This document shows positions 5,889 through 58,045 of a DNA stretch of 64,000 nucleotides, piece after piece. The translations under genes and the position numbers were made by a program. The notes under the pieces were generated by a model that saw only the letters and a list, made by a program, of their open reading frames with translations, was not told the DNA's origin and searched no databases. Each line of letters begins with the position of its first letter. Positions within the stretch are counted from its first letter, which is position 1. This DNA is from an uncultured candidatus Brocadiaceae bacterium (GTDB taxonomy: Bacteria > Planctomycetota > Brocadiia > SM23-32): the NCBI GenBank assembly GCA_964592385.1, contig CAZQEQ010000001.1:18236-82235 (forward strand), given 5' to 3'.

Positions 5889-6779
5889 CTACCCTTGCGC
5901 GAAGACGGAGGTCACGTCGAAGTAGCGCTCGAAGAAGCGCTCCGGCGCCACGTCGCTTGCCACGCGGTGCGGGCCGTCGCGGGATTCCTCGAACACGGTG
6001 ACGCCGAGGCTGTCCCCCCGCTCCAGGCCGACCGTCACCCGGCCGCTCCGGTACTGGCAGATATCCGGCTCGAAGATGCAAGCGGCGGCCAGCGGATCGT
6101 GGAAGGTGATCCTGCCCTGCTTGCGGAACCAGACCTCCGCCATGTCGCGCACGACTTCGAACGGGCCGCCGCGGAACCGCCGTCGGCACTCGTCCGCCGG
6201 CATGGTGCAGCGCAGGGTCACGTCCAGGCCGTAGGCGACGACGGCCGGGACCTCGGCGGAGAAGACGAGCTGGCTCGCGACGGGGTCGCCGGAGGTGTTC
6301 CACTCCCCCCTGCCGGGCGCGAAGTAGCAGCCGCCCATCATCACCAGGCGGCCGAGCAGGCGGGCCGCCTCCGGGTCCACGGCGAAGAGCAGGCCGGCGT
6401 TCGTCAGCGGGCCGATGGTCAGCAGCGTGATCTCCCCGGGCCTGTCGCGTATCGTGCGCCGGAGGAACTCGACCGCCTCGTATGCGGCGAAGTCCTCCCG
6501 GTGCGGCCAGCGGGGCAGGACCTCCGCCTGCGGCGCTTCGGGCTGCCTCTGCTCGAAGAGCAGGGGCCGGTCGCAGCCGCTGCGCACGGGGACCTCCGGG
6601 CGGCCGGCCGCCTTGCAGAGCGCGCTGGCCAGCATGGCCCGCTGCCGCGGCCGGCCGGTCACGCTCGTCACCCCCAGCAACTCGCAGCGCGGCTCCGCCA
6701 GCAAGTAGGCCAGGCAAACGGCGTCGTCAATGTCCGAGCCAATGTCCGTATCCAGCAGCAGCGGCACGCGATCAGGCAT
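5889..6779 (-). CDS. nucleoside hydrolase (inosine/uridine-preferring family)
   Basis: The ATG at 6779 follows GGGAGGGAAG. The N-terminal [14 protein letters not shown] aspartate cluster is diagnostic, and GPLTN is present. The rest of the 750-aa ORF upstream is antisense to thrC and is not coding. Confidence 0.9.
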
Positions 6780-6914
6780 CACTTCCCTCCCAGGCTGGCG
6801 CAGACGACAGGGGCGCGCGGGCCCCGTCCGAACTTGACATATACACCATTCGGGCGCCAGAATAAAGCTCCGTCCGCCCCCCGGCGGGGGATCCCCACGG
6901 TTGGAGGAAGCGAC

Positions 6915-8249
6915 GTGGAGCAGAAGTACAGCGCCTGGTTCCAGTGTTTTGCAGGCTGCGGCGAGCGTTACGGGCTGGACGAAATCATCTATCGCTGCCG
7001 GCGCTGCGACAGCCTGCTCGAGGTGCGCCACGACACGGAGGCCCTCGCGCGCACGAGCGCAGCGGAATGGAAGGCCCTGTTCGCGCAGCGCTGGGGGCTG
7101 GCCAGCGGGCCGCTCAGCGGCGGCGTGTGGGGCAAGAAGGAATGGGTCTGCCCAAGGGTTGCGGACGATAACATCGTCACCATCTACGAGGGGCGCACGC
7201 CCCTGCTGCACGTGGGGCGGTTCGGCGAAGAGATCGGCGTTCCCGACCTGCACGTCAAGCTCTGCGGCAACTCCCACACCGGCTCGTTCAAGGACCTGGG
7301 GATGACCGTCCTGGTCAGCATGGTCCAGCAGATGCGCGCGGAGGGCAAGGACGTCCCGGCGGTCGCCTGCGCCTCCACGGGCGATACCTCGGCGGCGCTG
7401 GCGGCGTACTGCGCCCGGGCCGGCATCCCGTCCATCGTCTTCCTGCCGCACGGCAAGATCAGCCTGGCGCAGCTCGTCCAACCCGTCGCCAACGGCGCGC
7501 TGACCCTGGCGCTCGACACGGACTTCGACGGCTGCATGGCGCTCGTGCAGGAAGTGTGCACGCGGAACAACATCTACCTGGCCAACTCGATGAACAGCCT
7601 GCGCGTCGAGGGCCAGAAGACGGTCTCGGTCGAGATATGCCAGCAGCTCGATTGGGAGGTGCCGGACTGGGTCGTCATTCCCGGCGGGAACCTGGGCAAC
7701 GTCAGCGCGCTGGGGCTCGGCTTCCGGCTGATGCGCGAGTTGGGGCTGATCGACCGGACGCCGCGCATCTGCTGCGCTCAGAGCGCCCGCGCCAATCCCC
7801 TCTACGAGAGCTACCTGAAGGACTTCGAGAGCTTCGAGCCCCAGCAGGCCCGCAAGACCCTCGCCACGGCCATCCAGATAGGCAGCCCGGTGAGCATCTG
7901 GAAGGCGGTCAAGACGCTGAAGGACTTCGGCGGCGTGGCCGAGCAGGCCACCGAGGCGGAACTGGCCGACGCCTGCGCCCGGGCCGACCGGAGCGGCCTG
8001 TTCACGGACCCGCACACGGGCGTCGCCCTGGCGGCGCTGATGAAGCTGGCCGGGCGCGGCGAGATCGGGCGCGGGGACCGCGTGGTCGTCATCTCCACCG
8101 CCCACGGCCTGAAGTTCCCCCAGTTCAAGACCGATTACCACGCGGGCCGGCTGGAGGGAATCGAGAGCCGTCGGGCCAATCCCCCCGTCGAACTGCCGGC
8201 CGACTACGACGCAGTCGTATCCGCCATATTCGACGCCATCCGGCCATAG
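6915..8249 (+). CDS. thrC: threonine synthase
   Basis: The GTG at 6915 follows GGAGGAAG. The N-terminus has a zinc-ribbon-like motif (CFAGCGERY...YRCRRCDS). The PLP lysine motif [11 protein letters not shown] and ASTGDTSAA are present. Confidence 0.9.
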
Positions 8250-8267
8250 GCACCTTAGCCTACGCGT

Positions 8268-8296
8268 TTGACATGGCCGCCACGACGCGATAGTAT
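8268..8296 (+). promoter_or_regulatory. putative sigma-70 promoter (TTGACA-N17-TAGTAT) for the STAS gene
   Basis: TTGACA at 8268-8273, a 17-nt spacer, and TAGTAT at 8291-8296, about 50 nt upstream of the start at 8349. Confidence 0.4.
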
Positions 8297-8348
8297 CCTG
8301 ACGTTGTCCATTCGAAGGCTCAGGAAGGCCGGTTGAGGGGGAAGGGTC

Positions 8349-8699
8349 TTGGCAATCGAAGTGCGCTCACATGACCGGGTGACGATAATCGACATTGTCG
8401 GCCGCTTTGATTCCCTCACGGCTCCTGCCATGAAATCCGAGATGGCGGGGTTGATCGAGCAGGGCAAGAGAAGGCTGGTGATCAACCTGTCAAAGCTGGA
8501 TTTCATCGACAGCGCCGGCCTGGGAGCGCTGGTGGCCTGCCTGCGCAGGGCTGTGGAGTGCGGCGGCGAGCTTCGCCTGGCCGACGTGCCGGCGATCTGC
8601 CGTTCTATCTTCGAGCTGACGCGCATGGACAGGGTCTTCGACATCAGCCAGAGCGAAGCGGCCGCCGTGGAGTCACTGGCCGAGAAGGAGCCGGGCTGA
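8349..8699 (+). CDS. STAS-domain anti-sigma-factor antagonist (SpoIIAA/RsbV-like)
   Basis: 116 aa. LSKLDFIDSAGLGALV contains the phosphorylatable DSAGLG serine motif. The start codon is TTG. Confidence 0.85.
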   Translation: MAIEVRSHDRVTIIDIVGRFDSLTAPAMKSEMAGLIEQGKRRLVINLSKLDFIDSAGLGALVACLRRAVECGGELRLADVPAICRSIFELTRMDRVFDISQSEAAAVESLAEKEPG

Positions 8700-8876
8700 A
8701 GACGGAGCCCGGCCCCCCGGGCGCGCAGTGGCGGTGCGGAGGTTCCCGCCTGGCGACTTGCGGGACGACAACCACGGATCGCAATGCAGCAGAAGGCGGT
8801 CCGAGTCGTTTAAACGCTGCAGTGTGGTTGGGACAACGTTCCGCGACGTACGGGGCCTCAGGGCCGAAGAACTGAA

Positions 8877-10316
8877 ATGGCCGACGGAAGAACCGATAGC
8901 ACGTTACGTGTCTTCGTTGTTGCGCCGAAGTCCGTAGCCGAACTCCTCCCCGACCAGGTGGCGGGCCGGCCTGTGGAGACTCTGCGTTGCAGCGGCCCGC
9001 AGGAGCTTTTCAGGAAGCTGACCGGTTCGGTCCCTGACGTCGTGGTGATGGACGCGGAGCACGCCGTCGGAGACGACAGCGCGCTGGAGCGCGTGCTCAA
9101 GCAGTACAGGGACCTGCCCGTCATCGTGGAGGCCGAGAGCCCGTCGGTCGATACGGTGGTGGACAGCATCAAGAGGGGCGCCGAGGACTTCATACCGCGC
9201 AGCAGGCTCTCGGACGAACTGCCCGACAAGCTCCTCCGGGCGGCCGAGAACCACCGGCTGATGATCAAAGTAAACCTGCTGCGGGATGTTTACGACAGGG
9301 GCAGCGGCAGGCTATGCGAAATGGTGGGCGTCAGCCCGGCGATGCAGGACGTCTACTCCAAGATAAAGAACATCGCCGCCACCAGCGCAACCGTCCTCGT
9401 GTGGGGGCCCAGCGGCACGGGAAAGGAGCTGGCCGCCGAAGCCATCCATACGCTGAGCGCGCGGGCCGCCGGCCAGTTCGTCACCGTCAACTGCGCCGCC
9501 ATCCCGAAAGACCTGCTGGAGAGCGAGCTGTTCGGGCACGAGAAGGGCTCGTTCACCGGGGCGACCCGCCAACACATCGGAAGCTGCGAGCGTGCCGACT
9601 CGGGCACGCTGTTCCTGGACGAGATATCCGAAATGGACCAGGGCCTTCAGTCGAAGCTGCTCCGGTTCCTGCAGGGCCATGCGTTCACGCGCGTCGGCGG
9701 CAGCGAAAGCATCAGCGTGGACACCCGCGTCATCGCGGCCACCAACAAGGACCCCTCCGAACAGATCAGGCAGGGCAACCTGCGCGAGGACCTCTACTAT
9801 CGCCTCAACGTCGTGCCGATCTACCTGCCCTCCCTGAAGGACAGGCGCGAGGACATCCCGGTGCTGTCCGAGCACTTCCTGCGCATGATGTGCGACAAGT
9901 ACTTCAAGTACTTCTACGACTTCTCGCCCGACGCCGTGCGGCTGCTGCTGGCCTACCCCTGGCCGGGGAACGTGAGGGAGCTGCGCAACACCATCGAGCA
10001 GATCGTCGTGCTGACCACCACCGACAGGGTCACTCCGGACATGTTCCCGGCCCGAATCAGGGAAGCGGCCGACGCCGCGTCCGTTGCCGACCTGGAAGTG
10101 GACCAGGCTCTGGAGACGATTCAGGGCGCCCTGCACACGCCTGCGGCGGCGGGGGCCGTGCCAGAAGAGGATATCGTGCCCTTCGCCGAAGTCGAGAAGC
10201 GGGCCATCGTGGCGGCCATCAGCAAGTGCAGCGGGGACATCAGCAAGGCAGCGCGCAAGCTCGGGCTCAGCCGCGGGACGCTCTACCGGAAGCTGGACAA
10301 GTACGGCATGCGCTGA
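8877..10316 (+). CDS. sigma-54-dependent transcriptional activator (NtrC/Fis family) with a degenerate receiver domain
   Basis: The AAA+ module has GPSGTGKELAAEAIH, ESELFGHEKGSFTGA (a GAFTGA variant), and LFLDEI. The C-terminus carries a Fis-type HTH (ISKAARKLGLSRGTLYRKL). The N-terminal REC-like fold lacks the acidic pair (VFVVAPKS). Confidence 0.9.
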   Translation: MADGRTDSTLRVFVVAPKSVAELLPDQVAGRPVETLRCSGPQELFRKLTGSVPDVVVMDAEHAVGDDSALERVLKQYRDLPVIVEAESPSVDTVVDSIKRGAEDFIPRSRLSDELPDKLLRAAENHRLMIKVNLLRDVYDRGSGRLCEMVGVSPAMQDVYSKIKNIAATSATVLVWGPSGTGKELAAEAIHTLSARAAGQFVTVNCAAIPKDLLESELFGHEKGSFTGATRQHIGSCERADSGTLFLDEISEMDQGLQSKLLRFLQGHAFTRVGGSESISVDTRVIAATNKDPSEQIRQGNLREDLYYRLNVVPIYLPSLKDRREDIPVLSEHFLRMMCDKYFKYFYDFSPDAVRLLLAYPWPGNVRELRNTIEQIVVLTTTDRVTPDMFPARIREAADAASVADLEVDQALETIQGALHTPAAAGAVPEEDIVPFAEVEKRAIVAAISKCSGDISKAARKLGLSRGTLYRKLDKYGMR

Positions 10317-11773: not shown

Positions 11774-12181
11774 TCACTCAGGGTAGCGCCAGCAGGCGGC
11801 GGACTGGAACAGCCTGTTTCCGCTGGGGCTCTGGAACTGCTGGACCCCGCGCAATAACTCGGCCAACTGTTCGGAGTCTCTATCCTCGAACCGACCGACG
11901 CACAGGGCCAACCTGCCGCCGCTCAGCTCAGCTATCCAGTAATCATGGCCCCCCGCCAGCGTCTGCATCTTCTCCATTGAAATCATGTCATCCGCCGTCG
12001 CTCGCTCCGAAGCCTCGAACTCCCAGAGCTTGACGGCGTAACATGGCGGCTGCCCGGCAACAGGCGAGACCGCGTTAAGCACCCGGCTGCTCTCTCGCCC
12101 GCCGAAGGCCGCTGTCAGCAGTATCCAGATCCCAACGCAGCCCACTATGGCAACCGATGTCCCGAAGACAAGCTTGCGCAT
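11774..12181 (-). CDS. hypothetical membrane-anchored protein
   Basis: MRKLVFGTSVAIVGCVGIWILLTAAF is an N-terminal TM/signal anchor, followed by a roughly 100-aa globular part. I recognise no family. The start could lie further upstream, up to 12370. Confidence 0.45.
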   Translation of the reverse strand: MRKLVFGTSVAIVGCVGIWILLTAAFGGRESSRVLNAVSPVAGQPPCYAVKLWEFEASERATADDMISMEKMQTLAGGHDYWIAELSGGRLALCVGRFEDRDSEQLAELLRGVQQFQSPSGNRLFQSAACWRYPE

Positions 12182-12566
12182 GCGTATCTCGCCTCCACTG
12201 TCCTCGGTGACGAGGCCCCAGCCGATGTCCTCCCTTTGAGTCTTTTGCCCGTTCGAGTCGCCTTCCCGCCGTTTTTCAGAACGTTCCCTGCGTGCTCTCA
12301 TCGTAGTCCTGCCTGCCCGTCCCTCCAGCGTAGTGGCAGATTCGAACACCCCTGCCCGGCGTCCCGGCATTATAGGCCAAAGTTTGACTCCAAGTCAAAT
12401 CAAGCGGCGGTCCGCTCCCTCGCCGTCTCGCAGCAACAGATGTAGCGCCACAAATGAGTCCGTACGCGCAGACGGGCGGCCGAAGGCAGAGGCGCCCCTT
12501 GCGCCGGCGCACGAGCCCCGTTAGACTCGCTCCCCTTGCGGACCCCCCGGAGCCCGGGCCCGAACC

Positions 12567-54029: not shown

Positions 54030-54722
54030 ATGCGCATCCTTATCACCGGGGCCGACCGCTCCCTCGGCCGGCACGCCGCCCGGCACCTCGGACGGGAGCA
54101 CGCCATCCGCCTCACGGGCGCCGCGCCCGCCGACGACCTGGGCGACGATTACCGCCCGGCTGACCTCACCTCGCCCGAGCAAGTCGCCGCGCTCGTCGAG
54201 GGCATGGACGCCGTCCTGCACCTGGCCGAGTTCGACCCCGAGCCGCCCGACGGCCCCGACGCGGAGCAGGAAACGCTGCGCCGCGCCACGCTCGGCACCT
54301 ACGTCCTCTGCCAGGCCGCCCGGCAGGCCGGCGTCGGGCGCATCGTCGTCGCGGGCACGCTCTCGGTCTTCGACGCCTACCCGGACTCCTATCTCATCGA
54401 CGAGCAGTGGAGGCCCCGCCCCGCCCCCGACGCCGCCCACCTCGCCCCCTACCTCTGCGAGGTCGTCGCGCGGGAGTTCGCACGCGAAGGCCCGGTCACA
54501 GGCGTCTGCCTGCGGTTCGCACCCATCGGCGACGACCCGGAGGCGAACACCCGCCTCGCCGACGCCCTCGGCGCCATTGACCGCGCGCTGCAACTGGAGC
54601 TCGGCCCGCCGGGCTACCGGTGGCACGTCTTCCACGTCGCCTCGTCGCCGCGCTACATCATGCGCAACGCGCGCCTGGTCCTCGGGTTCGAGCCGGGAGA
54701 CACGCAACCATGCCCGCAGTAG
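54030..54722 (+). CDS. NAD(P)-dependent oxidoreductase / epimerase-like (short)
   Basis: MRILITGADRSLGRHAARHL is a Rossmann N-terminus. 230 aa. Confidence 0.72.
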   Translation: MRILITGADRSLGRHAARHLGREHAIRLTGAAPADDLGDDYRPADLTSPEQVAALVEGMDAVLHLAEFDPEPPDGPDAEQETLRRATLGTYVLCQAARQAGVGRIVVAGTLSVFDAYPDSYLIDEQWRPRPAPDAAHLAPYLCEVVAREFAREGPVTGVCLRFAPIGDDPEANTRLADALGAIDRALQLELGPPGYRWHVFHVASSPRYIMRNARLVLGFEPGDTQPCPQ

Positions 54723-55525
54723 AACAGGGAACCGTCTGCGTCTTCGGCGCGGGCGGGCCGGTCGGCGCCGTCCTGGCGCCGATCCTCGCCCCGCACTACA
54801 CGCTGCGCCTGACCGACGTCGCGCCCGTGGACGAAGTGCTCCAGCGCGAGGGCTCGCCCATCTGGCCCAAGTGGCACGAGCCGCCTGAGCCGCCCCACGA
54901 ATGGCGCACCGTGGACGTCACCGACTACGACCAGGTCCGCCACGCGCTCGAGGGCTGCGACGCCACCGTCAGCCTCGCCGTCAACCGCAGCGACCCGCAC
55001 AAGGCATTCGGCATCAACGTCGTCGGCGCCTACAACATCATGAAGGCCGCCGTCGCGGCCGGCGTCGGGCGCGTCGTCCACACCGGCGTCGAGTCGCGCG
55101 CGCTCGAATACGAGGGCGACTACCGCTACGAGTTCGACGTCCCCGACGACGCGCCCATCCGTCCCGGCACCATGCTCTACCCGCACACCAAGCACGTCGC
55201 CCTCCAGGTCGTGGACGCCTTCGCCGAGCGCGCCGGCCTGGACGTCATCACGCTCGTGCTCTCGCGCCTGCGGCCCGCCGACCGCTACGACGGCCGCGAC
55301 GACGACGTGCTCCAGTCCTACTCGGTCGCGTGGGACGACCTCGGCCCGGCCTATCTCTGCGCGCTCCGGGCGCCCGAGATGCCGCATCCGAACGAACGGA
55401 TCTGCATCTGCGCGGACCTGCCGGTGGGGAAGTACTCCCCCGCCAAGGCCGAGCGGCTCCTCGGCTGGAAGCCCCGGCACGCCTTCGAGCGGTTCCACAC
55501 GCGCAACGCCGGCCCGGACGCCTGA
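54710..55525 (+). CDS. NAD-dependent epimerase/dehydratase family protein
   Basis: The ATG at 54710 gives MPAVEQGTVCVFGAGGPVGAVLAPIL, and YPHTKH is YxxxK-like. It overlaps the previous gene by 13 nt. Confidence 0.72.
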   Translation: MPAVEQGTVCVFGAGGPVGAVLAPILAPHYTLRLTDVAPVDEVLQREGSPIWPKWHEPPEPPHEWRTVDVTDYDQVRHALEGCDATVSLAVNRSDPHKAFGINVVGAYNIMKAAVAAGVGRVVHTGVESRALEYEGDYRYEFDVPDDAPIRPGTMLYPHTKHVALQVVDAFAERAGLDVITLVLSRLRPADRYDGRDDDVLQSYSVAWDDLGPAYLCALRAPEMPHPNERICICADLPVGKYSPAKAERLLGWKPRHAFERFHTRNAGPDA

Positions 55526-56001
55526 TCCTGAGCTCCACATCCCGCCGGGCCTTGCCTTGCCAGGAGAGCGTGCGTGCAGTCCGCAGCACCCAACTCAGTC
55601 AGGATGTCCACACGGACATGCCAAACGAGCACGATTCCGCGAGACGCTTTCTCGCTATGTCAAAGAGCAGTTTTGTTTTGTCAGGAAACAATTTGCGCCG
55701 GACAAAACGGACATCCCGCGCCGGGAACGGGCGGGAGAAACCACAACGACCACGACGAGCACCACGAGAATCACGAAGACAAGAGGCACGAGGTTTCGAG
55801 GAAGCAAAGGGGTCTGATCCCGCGTTGCCCGGCTTCGCCTCAATCCTCATGCCTCACGCCTCCGGCGAGTTTCTCGTTGCTGGTTGCTTGTTTCTTGTTG
55901 TCCGCCGTTCCATCGTGTGTCGTTGCTGTTGACATTTGTCGTCGTCTTTACTTCATACTTCAGCCCCGCCGTACGGCGGGCAAGCGTCTGCCTTCTTCTT
56001 T

Positions 56002-56025
56002 GGTCCTTGATCCTTGGTCCTTGAT
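56002..56025. repeat. 10-mer direct repeat GGTCCTTGAT x2 (4-nt spacer)
   Basis: Copies at 56002-56011 and 56016-56025 are identical, and sit immediately 5' of the 14-bp hairpin. Confidence 0.45.
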
Positions 56026-56029
56026 ACTT

Positions 56030-56063
56030 CCGGCGCAAAACGATTGTAGTCGTTTTGCGCCGG
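56030..56063. repeat. perfect 14-bp stem / 6-nt loop hairpin
   Basis: CCGGCGCAAAACGA-TTGTAG-TCGTTTTGCGCCGG. A related imperfect palindrome, TTTGCGCCGGACAAAACG, lies at 55692-55709. Confidence 0.6.
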
Positions 56064-56207
56064 CCGTGTGTCCGATCCGTCCCCTACTGACCGATAGAAA
56101 AGCGGATTCTTAGCGCAGGGGACGCGGAAAACCGCAGAGACGGCAACGCCTAACAGCGCACAGATGCTGTGCGAGGAGACGGCCCCTTGCTCGCACGAAG
56201 AAAGGCC

Positions 56208-56237
56208 TTGACAACGCCGCGCTCATGTGCCCACAAT
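56208..56237 (+). promoter_or_regulatory. possible promoter of the tcmP-DUF5131 pair (TTGACA-N18-CACAAT)
   Basis: Hexamers at 56208-56213 and 56232-56237, about 95 nt upstream of the ATG at 56334. Confidence 0.3.
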
Positions 56238-56333
56238 TGTTTAGGTATCAGCAAGGTAAGTATCGGTCCCTGCTTGCTTCGCGACACGGGTTTTCTTCTG
56301 TGTCCCCGAACGGGCAGGACCGGGAGTGCGCAT

Positions 56334-57215
56334 ATGCAGTCACAGATGTTCGGCGGCCCGTGGACGGAGGACAAGCTGGACGTCTTGCAGGGGTACCTGA
56401 ACGCCTATACGAAAGCACTGAAGAACATGCCATTCGAGTTGGTTTACATAGACGCTTTTGCCGGCACAGGTTACAGAGAGGAGAAAGCTCATGGCCCCAC
56501 TGGGAAGTCACTCTTCCCCGAGTTGACCGCGGGAGAGACTCAGGCTTTCCTGGCAGGTTCGGCTCGCAGGTCACTCATGATCGAGCGACCATTTGACCGT
56601 TACGTCTTCGTTGACAAGTCTCCCGCGAAGGCCGAGTTGCTCGAAGGTCTGCGGAGCGAATGGCCCGCGCTTGCGAGCCGCATCGAGGTGCTCCCCGAGG
56701 ACTGCAATACGTATCTGCAACGCGTCTGCAAGCACGGAGACTGGAGGGGCAGCAGAGCCGTGCTGTTCCTGGATCCATTTGGGATGCAGGTAGAATGGGA
56801 TACGATGGAAGCTGTGGCATCGACGCACGTCTTCGACGTGTGGATCCTCTTCCCCGTCAGTGCTGTGAACCGATTGCTGCGAAAGGATGCGAATATCTCC
56901 GCCGCCTGGAGAAACCGTTTGACAAAGCTCTTTGGGACCACCGCATGGTACAAAGAGCTCTACAGAGCGGACCATACCAGGCCCCTATTTGGTGGACGAA
57001 GCCAGCGCCGTACGAAGGTGCGCAGACTGCGGGACATCTGGCAGTACTACTACGACCGGCTTGCAGCCACGTTCAGCCGCGTCACAGACAGCCCCAAGTG
57101 GCTGCGGAACACGAAAAACACCCCTCTGTTCGTGTTCTGCTTTGGCGTGTCCAATCCTTCGTTGAAAGCTCAGGAGCTAGCCCTTAGAATCGCCGACTAC
57201 TTGCTAAAGGATTGA
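56334..57215 (+). CDS. three-Cys-motif partner protein TcmP-like
   Basis: The ATG at 56334 follows GGGAG. MQSQMFGGPWTEDKLDVLQGYLNAYTKAL..., YIDAFAGTGY and LFLDPFGMQVEW are present. It lies directly upstream (3-nt gap) of a DUF5131 gene, which is the defining context of the family as I remember it. GC is lower than in the flanks. Confidence 0.75.
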   Translation: MQSQMFGGPWTEDKLDVLQGYLNAYTKALKNMPFELVYIDAFAGTGYREEKAHGPTGKSLFPELTAGETQAFLAGSARRSLMIERPFDRYVFVDKSPAKAELLEGLRSEWPALASRIEVLPEDCNTYLQRVCKHGDWRGSRAVLFLDPFGMQVEWDTMEAVASTHVFDVWILFPVSAVNRLLRKDANISAAWRNRLTKLFGTTAWYKELYRADHTRPLFGGRSQRRTKVRRLRDIWQYYYDRLAATFSRVTDSPKWLRNTKNTPLFVFCFGVSNPSLKAQELALRIADYLLKD

Positions 57216-57218
57216 ACG

Positions 57219-57938
57219 ATGGCCCAGGAATCTAGCATTGAGTGGACAGACTCCACCTGGAACCCGGTTACGGGCTGCACGAAGATCAGCCCGGGCTGCG
57301 CGAACTGCTACGCCGAGCGGATGGCAAGACGCTTGCAGGCAATGGGCCAGCCCAACTACACAAACGGCTTCCGAGTGACGACTCATCCACATATGTTGGA
57401 GAAGCCGCTGGAATGGCGCCAGAGCCAGACGATCTTCGTGAACTCCATGAGCGACCTCTTCCACAAAGACGTGCCGGAAGACTTTATCCGCCGCACATTC
57501 GACATCATGGTCAGGGCTGATTGGCACCTGTTCCAGGTGCTCACGAAACGCTCAAGGCGGTTGGCCGCGATGGCCGCGTCCCTGCCGTGGCCAGAGAACA
57601 TCTGGGCCGGCGTAAGCGTGGAGAACGAGGACTACGTATCGCGGATGCACCATTTGCGCGAGCTGCCTGCTGCCGTTCGCTTCGTCTCCTTCGAGCCCCT
57701 GATCGGGCCGCTCACCGAACCCCACCTTGACGGCATAGATTGGGTGATAGTGGGAGGCGAATCGGGACCGGGCGCCCGGCCCATGGAACGCGGATGGGTC
57801 GTCGCCATCCGCGACGCGTGCCTGGAGGAGGGTGTCCCGTTCTTCTTCAAGCAATGGGGCGGCGTGCGCCGCAAGGAGGCCGGCCGCCTGCTGGACGGCA
57901 GGACTTGGGACGAGATGCCGGCCCTGTGCACAGTATAG
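57219..57938 (+). CDS. DUF5131 family protein (phage Gp37/Gp68, COG4422) with a Cx6Cx2C motif
   Basis: [66 protein letters not shown] and FFFKQWGG are hallmark blocks of PF07505. Confidence 0.88.
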
Positions 57939-58045
57939 TGGTGATGCGCCGGCGGCCCCCGGCCCGTCATATCGGGTCTATCCGACCATGCCTTCTTCCG
58001 TCTCCGCCGTTCTCCCCGGTCTCGGCGTTCTCGGCGCTGATGCTG

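Follow-up and report, generated by a model that had tools for sequence, protein, structure and literature searches.

A 'guilt-by-embedding' survey of genes nested in BREX, DISARM and type I restriction-modification (R-M) loci has predicted 145 candidate anti-phage systems, the PDC candidates (Payne et al., 10.1101/2024.01.29.577857), most of which stand without experimental test (10.1101/2024.01.29.577857; PMC12988326). Two of them, PDC-M41 and PDC-M30, are the closest described counterparts of a pair of adjacent genes in a 64,000-nucleotide (nt) stretch of the genome of an uncultured Brocadiaceae bacterium (contig CAZQEQ010000001.1, positions 18,236 to 82,235; hereafter the window). The first gene, tcmP (56334-57215, plus strand), encodes TcmP, a protein of 293 amino acids (aa) belonging to the three-Cys-motif partner family; the second (57219-57938, plus strand) encodes a DUF5131 (Gp37/Gp68) protein of 239 aa with a triad of cysteines. 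The two products match both PDC-M41 hidden Markov models (HMMs) of PADLOC almost end to end (M41A, E 1.8e-104; M41B, E 7.4e-117), and the pair is therefore already catalogued as a candidate anti-phage system. The DUF5131 protein also matches PDC-M30B (E 2e-110) and TcmP matches PDC-M30A weakly; neither protein matches any PADLOC model other than those of PDC-M41 and PDC-M30.

A central question is what TcmP is a partner of. We assembled 99 TcmP loci (30-59% identity) from 7 GTDB genomes, 2 plasmids, 2 phages, 8 metagenome or genome contigs and 80 IMG/VR viral contigs, a set that was not de-replicated; genome contigs were queried with a single protein, which gave 7 loci only, and an alignment query would reach further. 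A three-Cys partner is present at all 97 loci that can be judged, the other two being cut by contig ends. At 77 of the 99 the partner is DUF5131, no more than 300 nt from TcmP, in three arrangements: 43 convergent, 18 with TcmP upstream and 16 with DUF5131 upstream. On the Sinorhizobium meliloti plasmid pSymA (L012) DUF5131 lies 1.4 kb from TcmP, with a second TcmP paralogue between the two. At 19 of the 99, a different three-Cys protein directly adjoins TcmP. This substitute is a canonical radical S-adenosylmethionine (SAM) protein that passes the Pfam Radical_SAM model (36.7-39 bits against a cut-off of 29.5). Its similarity is to the radical SAM families PA0069, Rv2578c and 'mobile pair B', and its triad is spaced C-x3-C-x2-C or C-x3-C-x3-C. 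We take the PA0069 and Rv2578c families to belong with SplB (COG1533). One TcmP subfamily, found on IMG/VR contigs (L075-L098, L151) and on the Nostoc plasmid pC052_C (L014), is paired with a Radical_SAM protein of this PA0069/Rv2578c type; it is about 39% identical to the window TcmP (44% on the Nostoc plasmid), and its partners on the viral contigs carry C-x3-C-x3-C.

DUF5131 and the substitutes are themselves related. Aligned by hhalign, the DUF5131 profile and that of the PF04055 (Radical_SAM)-positive TcmP partners match over 141 columns (E 1.2e-4) with the Cys triads in register, and three further blocks are paired: NSMSDLFH with CFTTDPFM, LTKR with LTKG, and FVSFEPL with WVSIEPY. The pairing, the Radical_SAM substitutes and this alignment together yield a near-absolute rule: TcmP is the obligate partner of a radical-SAM-type enzyme, of which DUF5131 is one predicted version. 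The preliminary description of the window had treated the two genes as conserved neighbours, as they prove to be, and had described TcmP as a family defined by adjacency to DUF5131; the neighbour rule holds, but the neighbour may be any three-Cys partner, Radical_SAM proteins filling the place in the 19 loci just described.

The converse of the rule fails. Among 181 phage records with DUF5131 only 5 match TcmP (tblastn), and in all five phages sampled (Cracklewink, Matteo, prophiGD11-3, phiE125 and phi3LM21; L157-L161) DUF5131 is encoded in an early or replication region, measures 308-398 aa and lacks a TcmP gene within 3.5 kb. The neighbours of DUF5131 in these five phages include DNA methylases, HNH endonucleases, a PAPS-reductase-like domain protein and MazG. 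A different elaboration is seen at L012, L081 and L009-L011, where the short TcmP and its three-Cys neighbour are accompanied by a second, longer TcmP paralogue resembling PDC-M30A; the long paralogue of pSymA carries a GMT-type winged-helix domain.

The family assignments on which this argument rests had been made in the preliminary description, and HMM scores above the respective cut-offs show both to be correct. The second protein matches PF07505 at 340.6 bits (cut-off 28.9; E 7e-102) over profile positions 1-243 of 243, and PHROG 2045 at E 8e-98. The motifs quoted earlier for the two proteins are all present, the Cys triad, FFFKQWGG, DAFAGxG and DP[FY]G being invariant among homologues. 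In DUF5131, C20, C27 and C30, the GGESGP and FFFKQWGG blocks and many basic residues are invariant across 30 homologues. The triad, C20-x6-C27-x2-C30 (57276-57308, plus strand), supplies the predicted cluster ligands; the G179-GESGP-184 block (57753-57770, plus strand) follows the sixth strand. An AlphaFold2 model (pLDDT 76, pTM 0.79) contains six beta-alpha units, and DUF5131 is accordingly modelled as a compact (beta/alpha)6 protein. Foldseek matches this model to TIM barrels and to the radical SAM enzymes NifB, LipA (lipoyl synthase) and, lower down, spore photoproduct lyase (SPL), these three with probabilities of 0.85-0.97 and E-values of 0.02-0.2; a search of PDB sequences with DUF5131 gave no match. 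The protein aligns with TIGR04471 ('radical SAM mobile pair protein A') at E 1.4e-18, its score of 67 being far below the cut-off of 355, and RadicalSAM.org places DUF5131 in Megacluster-5-2, beside spore photoproduct lyase in 5-3 (PMC9477430). At the profile level DUF5131 is homologous to SplB-like radical SAM proteins and is predicted to be a radical-SAM-type [4Fe-4S] enzyme, and the earlier suggestion that its Cys triad forms an Fe-S centre is supported by this homology. The family is large: at least 8,000 candidates score at E<=1e-5, and it occurs in many phyla and in phages.

TcmP matches TIGR04474 at 197.8 bits (cut-off 53) over residues 9-276, and its profile matches 5,396 clusters (50% identity) at E<=0.001, so that it too represents a large family, likewise spread over many phyla and phages. 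In its AlphaFold2 model, built from an alignment of 39 homologues (pLDDT 86, pTM 0.84), the strands follow the order typical of class I methyltransferases. The best Foldseek match in the PDB is 2oo3 (E 5.8e-6), an entry described as Pfam DUF519, which we take to be the RlmJ family; Trm1 follows (E 1.6e-5) and then other class I methyltransferases, and in the BFVD library of viral folds the matches are to generic methyltransferases only. A profile of TcmP homologues aligned by hhalign with Escherichia coli RlmJ (E 2.4e-4) pairs YIDAFAGTG with YLDTHAGAG, the latter containing motif I of RlmJ (D41-THAGAG), and RAVLFLDPFG with RGLILIDPPYE, which contains motif IV (D164-PPY); an N-terminal G...K and a W-x-x-P block after motif IV are aligned as well. 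The TcmP pair G8...K14 may correspond to G11...K18 of RlmJ. In a profile search of the PDB, RlmJ chains reach only E 0.15; the top matches there, to ferritin, are spurious.

The conservation pattern agrees with this placement. Residues G8, K14, D40, A43, G44, G46, D123, N125, F145, D147 and P148 are invariant or nearly so across homologues, DAFAGxG and DP[FY]G stand out as conserved blocks, and position 94 is acidic, being E in at least 90% of homologues and D in the window protein. Motif I, Y38-IDAFAGTG-46 (56445-56471, plus strand), is the glycine loop that follows strand 1 and is predicted to bind SAM, and motif IV, L144-FLDPFG-150 (56763-56783, plus strand), corresponds to the catalytic D/N-P-P-Y of amino-methyltransferases. 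TcmP thus has, in its model, the class I Rossmann methyltransferase fold, and is closest to RlmJ and Trm1, which are exocyclic-amine methyltransferases. In the alignments four methyltransferase motifs of TcmP are preserved: the SAM loop (I), an acidic residue (II), D-x-N (III) and D-P-[F/Y]-G (IV). This is the predicted motif set of a SAM-dependent methyltransferase acting on an exocyclic amine. The preliminary description had likened TcmP to RlmJ-type amino-methyltransferases on the strength of motifs I and IV, a reading that the structural and profile matches support. A candidate fusion of TcmP with DUF5131, which would have served as a Rosetta stone, was discarded: the 552-aa top match (P0243) consists of two near-identical tandem copies of TcmP and is most likely an assembly artefact, and one further long match has an unrelated N-terminal extension.

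The settings in which the pair occurs are varied. At three loci (L017, L020, L155) it lies within type III-like R-M operons, flanked by their N6_N4 methylase and ResIII/RE_endonuc genes, and two of these loci have an SNF2 helicase upstream; N6_N4 DNA methylase genes directly adjoin the pair at these three loci and at L081. The cassette adjoins BREX on a Nostoc plasmid, the Hna defence gene on pSymA, and AbiE, a helicase and an integrase at L153, and PIN or BrnT toxin-antitoxin pairs lie beside it at L019 and L156. In Gordonia phages it sits between the immunity repressor and the integrase, and 80 of the TcmP loci, as noted, are on viral contigs. At L156 (positions 6779-9641) genes for LexA, an Ogt-type methylated-DNA alkyltransferase, TcmP and DUF5131 follow one another head to tail, separated by anything from a few bases to 15 nt, a hint that in at least one lineage the pair is connected with the DNA-damage response. 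Finally, the pair is solitary in housekeeping surroundings at L016, L154, L162 and L164, as it is in the window.

What might such a pair do? The explanation that we favour, as an evenly balanced judgement, is that it constitutes a mobile, SAM-dependent module of two enzymes for the modification of nucleic acid – probably DNA – in conflicts involving phages and mobile elements. DUF5131 would bind a [4Fe-4S] cluster, cleave SAM and perform radical chemistry on a nucleic-acid base, most likely a base in DNA. TcmP would bind SAM together with a flipped-out base, and would either methylate that base or present it to DUF5131, so that the pair jointly installs or processes a covalent base modification. 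Less certainly, the modification may serve the conflict between host, mobile element and phage, be it as a self mark, as protection or as anti-phage action; such a role would account for the spread of the cassette on its own, within R-M operons and in the immunity regions of prophages. This biological role – defence, self-marking or anti-restriction – is the least secure step of the proposal. As to the target, we lean modestly toward DNA over RNA, on four grounds. DUF5131 has relatives of the SplB type, and SplB (COG1533) is described as a DNA-repair protein under SOS regulation (PMC8565304); DNA methylases adjoin the pair at some loci; L156 has the Ogt/LexA string; and the phage DUF5131 genes that stand alone are found in replication modules and beside DNA methylases. 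We go one step further only tentatively, with a proposal that seems to us more apt to be revised than to survive as it stands: TcmP/three-Cys pairs may form a new hypermodification class, in which a methyltransferase-fold protein and an SPL-related enzyme jointly make an undescribed base modification that would serve by itself to mark self or to counter viruses, carried by a 1.6-kb cassette across phyla and temperate phages.

A number of observations weigh against this proposal. On the side of TcmP, there is no Pfam match at E<=0.1, the RlmJ family model PF04378 (DUF519) included, and for this reason we call the protein RlmJ-like and do not file it as a member of that family; the structural matches to the RlmJ family and Trm1 have modest TM-scores (0.44-0.51 overall, 0.44-0.47 for 2oo3); and motif IV reads D-P-F-G, the second proline of D-P-P-Y being missing. 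RlmJ and Trm1, moreover, methylate RNA (rRNA and tRNA), not DNA. On the side of DUF5131, the model has low confidence in the Cys loop (residues 23-50), Foldseek yields nothing at E<=0.001, PF04055 (Radical_SAM) is not matched at E<=0.1, and the spacing C-x6-C-x2-C is not the canonical C-x3-C-x2-C of radical SAM enzymes; variant spacings do exist in accepted radical SAM members. The surroundings add to the difficulty. The 61 neighbour open reading frames (ORFs) at six GTDB loci are mostly housekeeping, the exceptions being a few insertion-sequence or Mu transposases, HipA, one type IIG/ISP R-M gene and one PDC-S28; for this reason defence-island enrichment is not evident in the six genomes, and the survey of defence neighbours that the preliminary description had recommended lends its idea of an anti-phage role no clear support. 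Within about 10 kb of the cassette in the window there is no defence, mobility, nuclease or R-M gene, and hence no restriction endonuclease linked to the pair of the kind that membership of an R-M system would entail. Literature searches, finally, gave no test or mechanistic discussion of PDC-M41 or PDC-M30 and no experiment on either protein family.

Several of these points invite a different reading, in which the pair is directed at RNA and modifies host or phage rRNA or tRNA, for example in a shutdown of translation resembling abortive infection. The best structural matches of TcmP are to rRNA and tRNA methyltransferases of the RlmJ family and Trm1, some phage annotations call DUF5131 homologues 'RNA methyltransferase', the pair is catalogued as a defence candidate, and toxin-antitoxin modules adjoin it at L019 and L156. 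We nonetheless consider an RNA-directed system unlikely, since its neighbours – DNA methylases, R-M operons, Ogt/LexA and phage replication modules – point to DNA metabolism, the radical SAM relatives of DUF5131 are of the SplB type, and no conserved sensor or regulator stands beside the pair to gate a toxic activity. Kinship with SplB is also what lends substance to the idea that an SPL-like radical enzyme and its helper restore DNA by undoing a lesion or removing an alkyl or methyl adduct, the cassette then being a mobile fitness gene and not a defence system: DUF5131 shares Megacluster-5 of RadicalSAM.org with spore photoproduct lyase, the alternative partners of TcmP are PA0069/Rv2578c-like, SplB/COG1533 being SOS-regulated, and L156 offers the string LexA-Ogt-TcmP-DUF5131. 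The link to the SOS response and alkylation is confined, however, to one of about 20 annotated contexts, and TcmP keeps the full set of methyl-donor motifs, for which a repair helper has no need; the patchy distribution and low GC content of the cassette, and its occurrence within R-M operons and the immunity regions of prophages, are what conflict genes typically show. Damage reversal therefore strikes us as improbable.

The beneficiary of the chemistry can also be drawn more narrowly. Were the pair an orphan hypermodification module that shields the DNA of its carrier from restriction and takes no part in phage defence, it would be natural that no nuclease or effector is consistently linked to it, that stand-alone DUF5131 genes lie in phage early and replication regions beside DNA methylases, and that 80 TcmP loci are on IMG/VR viral contigs. 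Yet solitary chromosomal copies such as that in the window have no element left to protect, and anti-restriction is in any case a sub-case of the explanation that we favour, with the same chemistry and another beneficiary; taken as the whole role of the pair we hold it to be slightly less probable again than damage reversal. Least probable of all, in our view, is a small-molecule antiviral after the manner of viperins, which are radical SAM enzymes of defence: the radical enzyme would make a chain terminator or a signal out of a nucleotide, and methylation by TcmP would fall on this product or on its precursor. The pair is a PADLOC defence candidate, and the 70-81% identity of DUF5131 across phyla (among the matches listed) fits a universal small substrate; but no PADLOC model besides PDC-M41 and PDC-M30 was matched, there is no recurrent nucleotide kinase or nucleotide-binding partner, and the nearest relatives of TcmP act on bases in nucleic-acid polymers, those of DUF5131 being SplB-like.

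Mobility is part of the preferred explanation, that of a two-enzyme modification module, and the base composition of the window bears on it. As a proxy for the host we used the 35 long ORFs of the window with high GC content at third codon positions (GC3), which average 67.8 +/- 3.0% GC and 87.9 +/- 4.5% GC3. By this standard tcmP (GC 57.0%, GC3 71.1%) lies about 3.6 standard deviations (SD) below the host, and DUF5131 (GC 62.6%, GC3 81.2%) only about 1.6 SD below. At a resolution of 200 nt the low-GC tract runs from about 55530 to about 57650; it starts right after the epimerase stop codon, and therefore includes the 804-nt leader upstream of tcmP, and it fades inside DUF5131. Codons that are rare in the host are raised 6- to 12-fold in tcmP (per 1000 codons, tcmP against host: AAA 17 against 2.4, TTT 20 against 2.2, AGA 20 against 1.7, TTG 27 against 4.6), the absolute counts being small (AAA 5, TTT 6, ACA 3, TAT 2). 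The preliminary description had assigned the departure in composition to both genes, to the only such stretch of the window, and to a list of codons that included GAA and TAT. It is borne out for tcmP and the leader and much less so for DUF5131; it is roughly unique at 1-kb resolution, with the qualification that an ORF of 198 aa at 11774-12370 (minus strand; GC3 0.74 against a host mean of 0.88; no Pfam match) is a second outlier; and for AAA and TTT the enrichment stands, whereas comparison with the proxy host gives no clear enrichment of GAA or TAT in tcmP.

Relatives of the cassette carry similar marks. In 9 of 10 related loci its GC content is below that of the flanks. The two closest relatives (TcmP 58-59%, DUF5131 75-79% identical) are solitary pairs in housekeeping surroundings with neighbours that differ, and DUF5131 is 70-81% identical, among the matches listed, to proteins of Acidobacteriota, Verrucomicrobia, Chloroflexi and Planctomycetes; the identity of TcmP to its homologues tops out at 46-59%. 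The composition of tcmP and its leader, the GC-poor related cassettes, the differing neighbours of the relatives and the identity of DUF5131 across phyla make horizontal acquisition of the cassette plausible. An empty insertion site was not found among 50 metagenomic loci with relatives of the flanking creatininase (<=67% identity): these loci have no synteny with the window, no TcmP and no DUF5131, and so there is no empty site to compare. Nor is there a tRNA gene, integrase or transposase near the cassette in the window. Two direct repeats of 18 nt that agree at 15 positions (56047-56064 and 57936-57953) bracket the cassette, the right copy overlapping the DUF5131 stop codon; considered as an insertion scar, they are compatible with chance. 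The flanking genes are housekeeping, with an epimerase upstream and the creatininase as neighbour, and nothing in the window extends the acquired segment beyond a cassette of about 2.4 kb, so that the island context invoked earlier falls away. Two epimerase-family ORFs, 54030-54722 and 54620-55525, overlap in the mechanical ORF list; the public call starts the second at about 54710.

The layout of the cassette is that of a compact, self-contained operon. The two genes are co-directional, and the 3-nt spacer reported earlier is confirmed, with the tcmP stop codon TGA at 57213-57215 and the DUF5131 ATG at 57219. Shine-Dalgarno-like sequences, GGGAG (56322-56326) and AAGGA (57207-57211), each lie 7 nt 5' of the ATG that they serve. 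A sigma-70-like promoter match (56208-56237, plus strand; TTGACA, 18-nt spacer, CACAAT; 10 of 12 positions) is found about 100 nt 5' of the tcmP ATG, a call by consensus alone, with 2 matches against 0.5 expected. The leader itself (55530-56333, no strand assigned; GC 57.6%) spans the distance from the epimerase stop to the tcmP start and is probably part of the acquired segment. No gene is recognised in it: there is no Rfam match at E<=1, no Pfam match for its ORFs and no similarity to the leaders of related loci, and a hidden gene or RNA was accordingly set aside as a candidate. It does contain a perfect 14-bp inverted repeat with a 6-nt loop (56030-56063, plus strand; CCGGCGCAAAACGA ttgtag TCGTTTTGCGCCGG), which is unique in the window, and several terminator-like stem-loops.

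The observation that prompted this analysis is thus real and its interpretation holds: the window copy is a typical, intact member of a catalogued family pair, and it adds no new kind of system. The earlier statement that the pair has no established function agrees with our literature searches, which found none given for DUF5131, COG4422 or TcmP. What is new here is the RlmJ-like assignment of TcmP, its near-absolute pairing with a three-Cys protein, be it DUF5131 or a canonical radical SAM substitute, the asymmetry with the stand-alone phage Gp37/Gp68 proteins, and the range of genomic contexts. The pairing rule, the RlmJ-like motifs and the SplB-like relatives of the partner combine into a testable hypothesis, namely that two SAM-dependent steps may fall on one base. 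If true, this would represent new chemistry of DNA or RNA modification, and would settle whether PDC-M41 and PDC-M30 are real defence systems. The window copy, being intact, compact and solitary, would offer a clean construct for such experiments.

It remains to set the pair against the systems that it most resembles. The PDC-M41 and PDC-M30 candidates were defined by their embedding in BREX, DISARM and type I R-M loci, whereas the window pair is solitary among housekeeping genes. To RlmJ/DUF519, the 23S rRNA m6A2030 methyltransferase (PDB 2oo3, 4blu, 6qdx), TcmP has its best Foldseek match, and hhalign aligns the two at the G...K pair, DxxAGxG, the DP-aromatic motif and W-x-x-P; it departs from RlmJ in reading D-P-F-G where RlmJ has D-P-P-Y, in a shorter insertion after strand 1 that is modelled at low confidence, and in its C-terminal part. 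The TcmP gene, moreover, is mobile and has an obligate three-Cys partner, whereas RlmJ is a housekeeping protein. The radical SAM proteins of SplB/SPL type (COG1533; PA0069, Rv2578c; TIGR04470/TIGR04471) align with DUF5131 at the Cys triad and three further motifs; unlike them, DUF5131 is shorter, has the C-x6-C-x2-C spacing, lacks PF04055 and stays well under the TIGR04471 cut-off. The phage Gp37/Gp68 proteins (phiE125 gp37 and homologues in mycobacteriophages and Gordonia phages; PHROG 2045) share PF07505 with the window protein. Those of phage early regions are longer, contain insertions and have no TcmP, whereas the window DUF5131 belongs to a short, TcmP-paired and very conserved subgroup.

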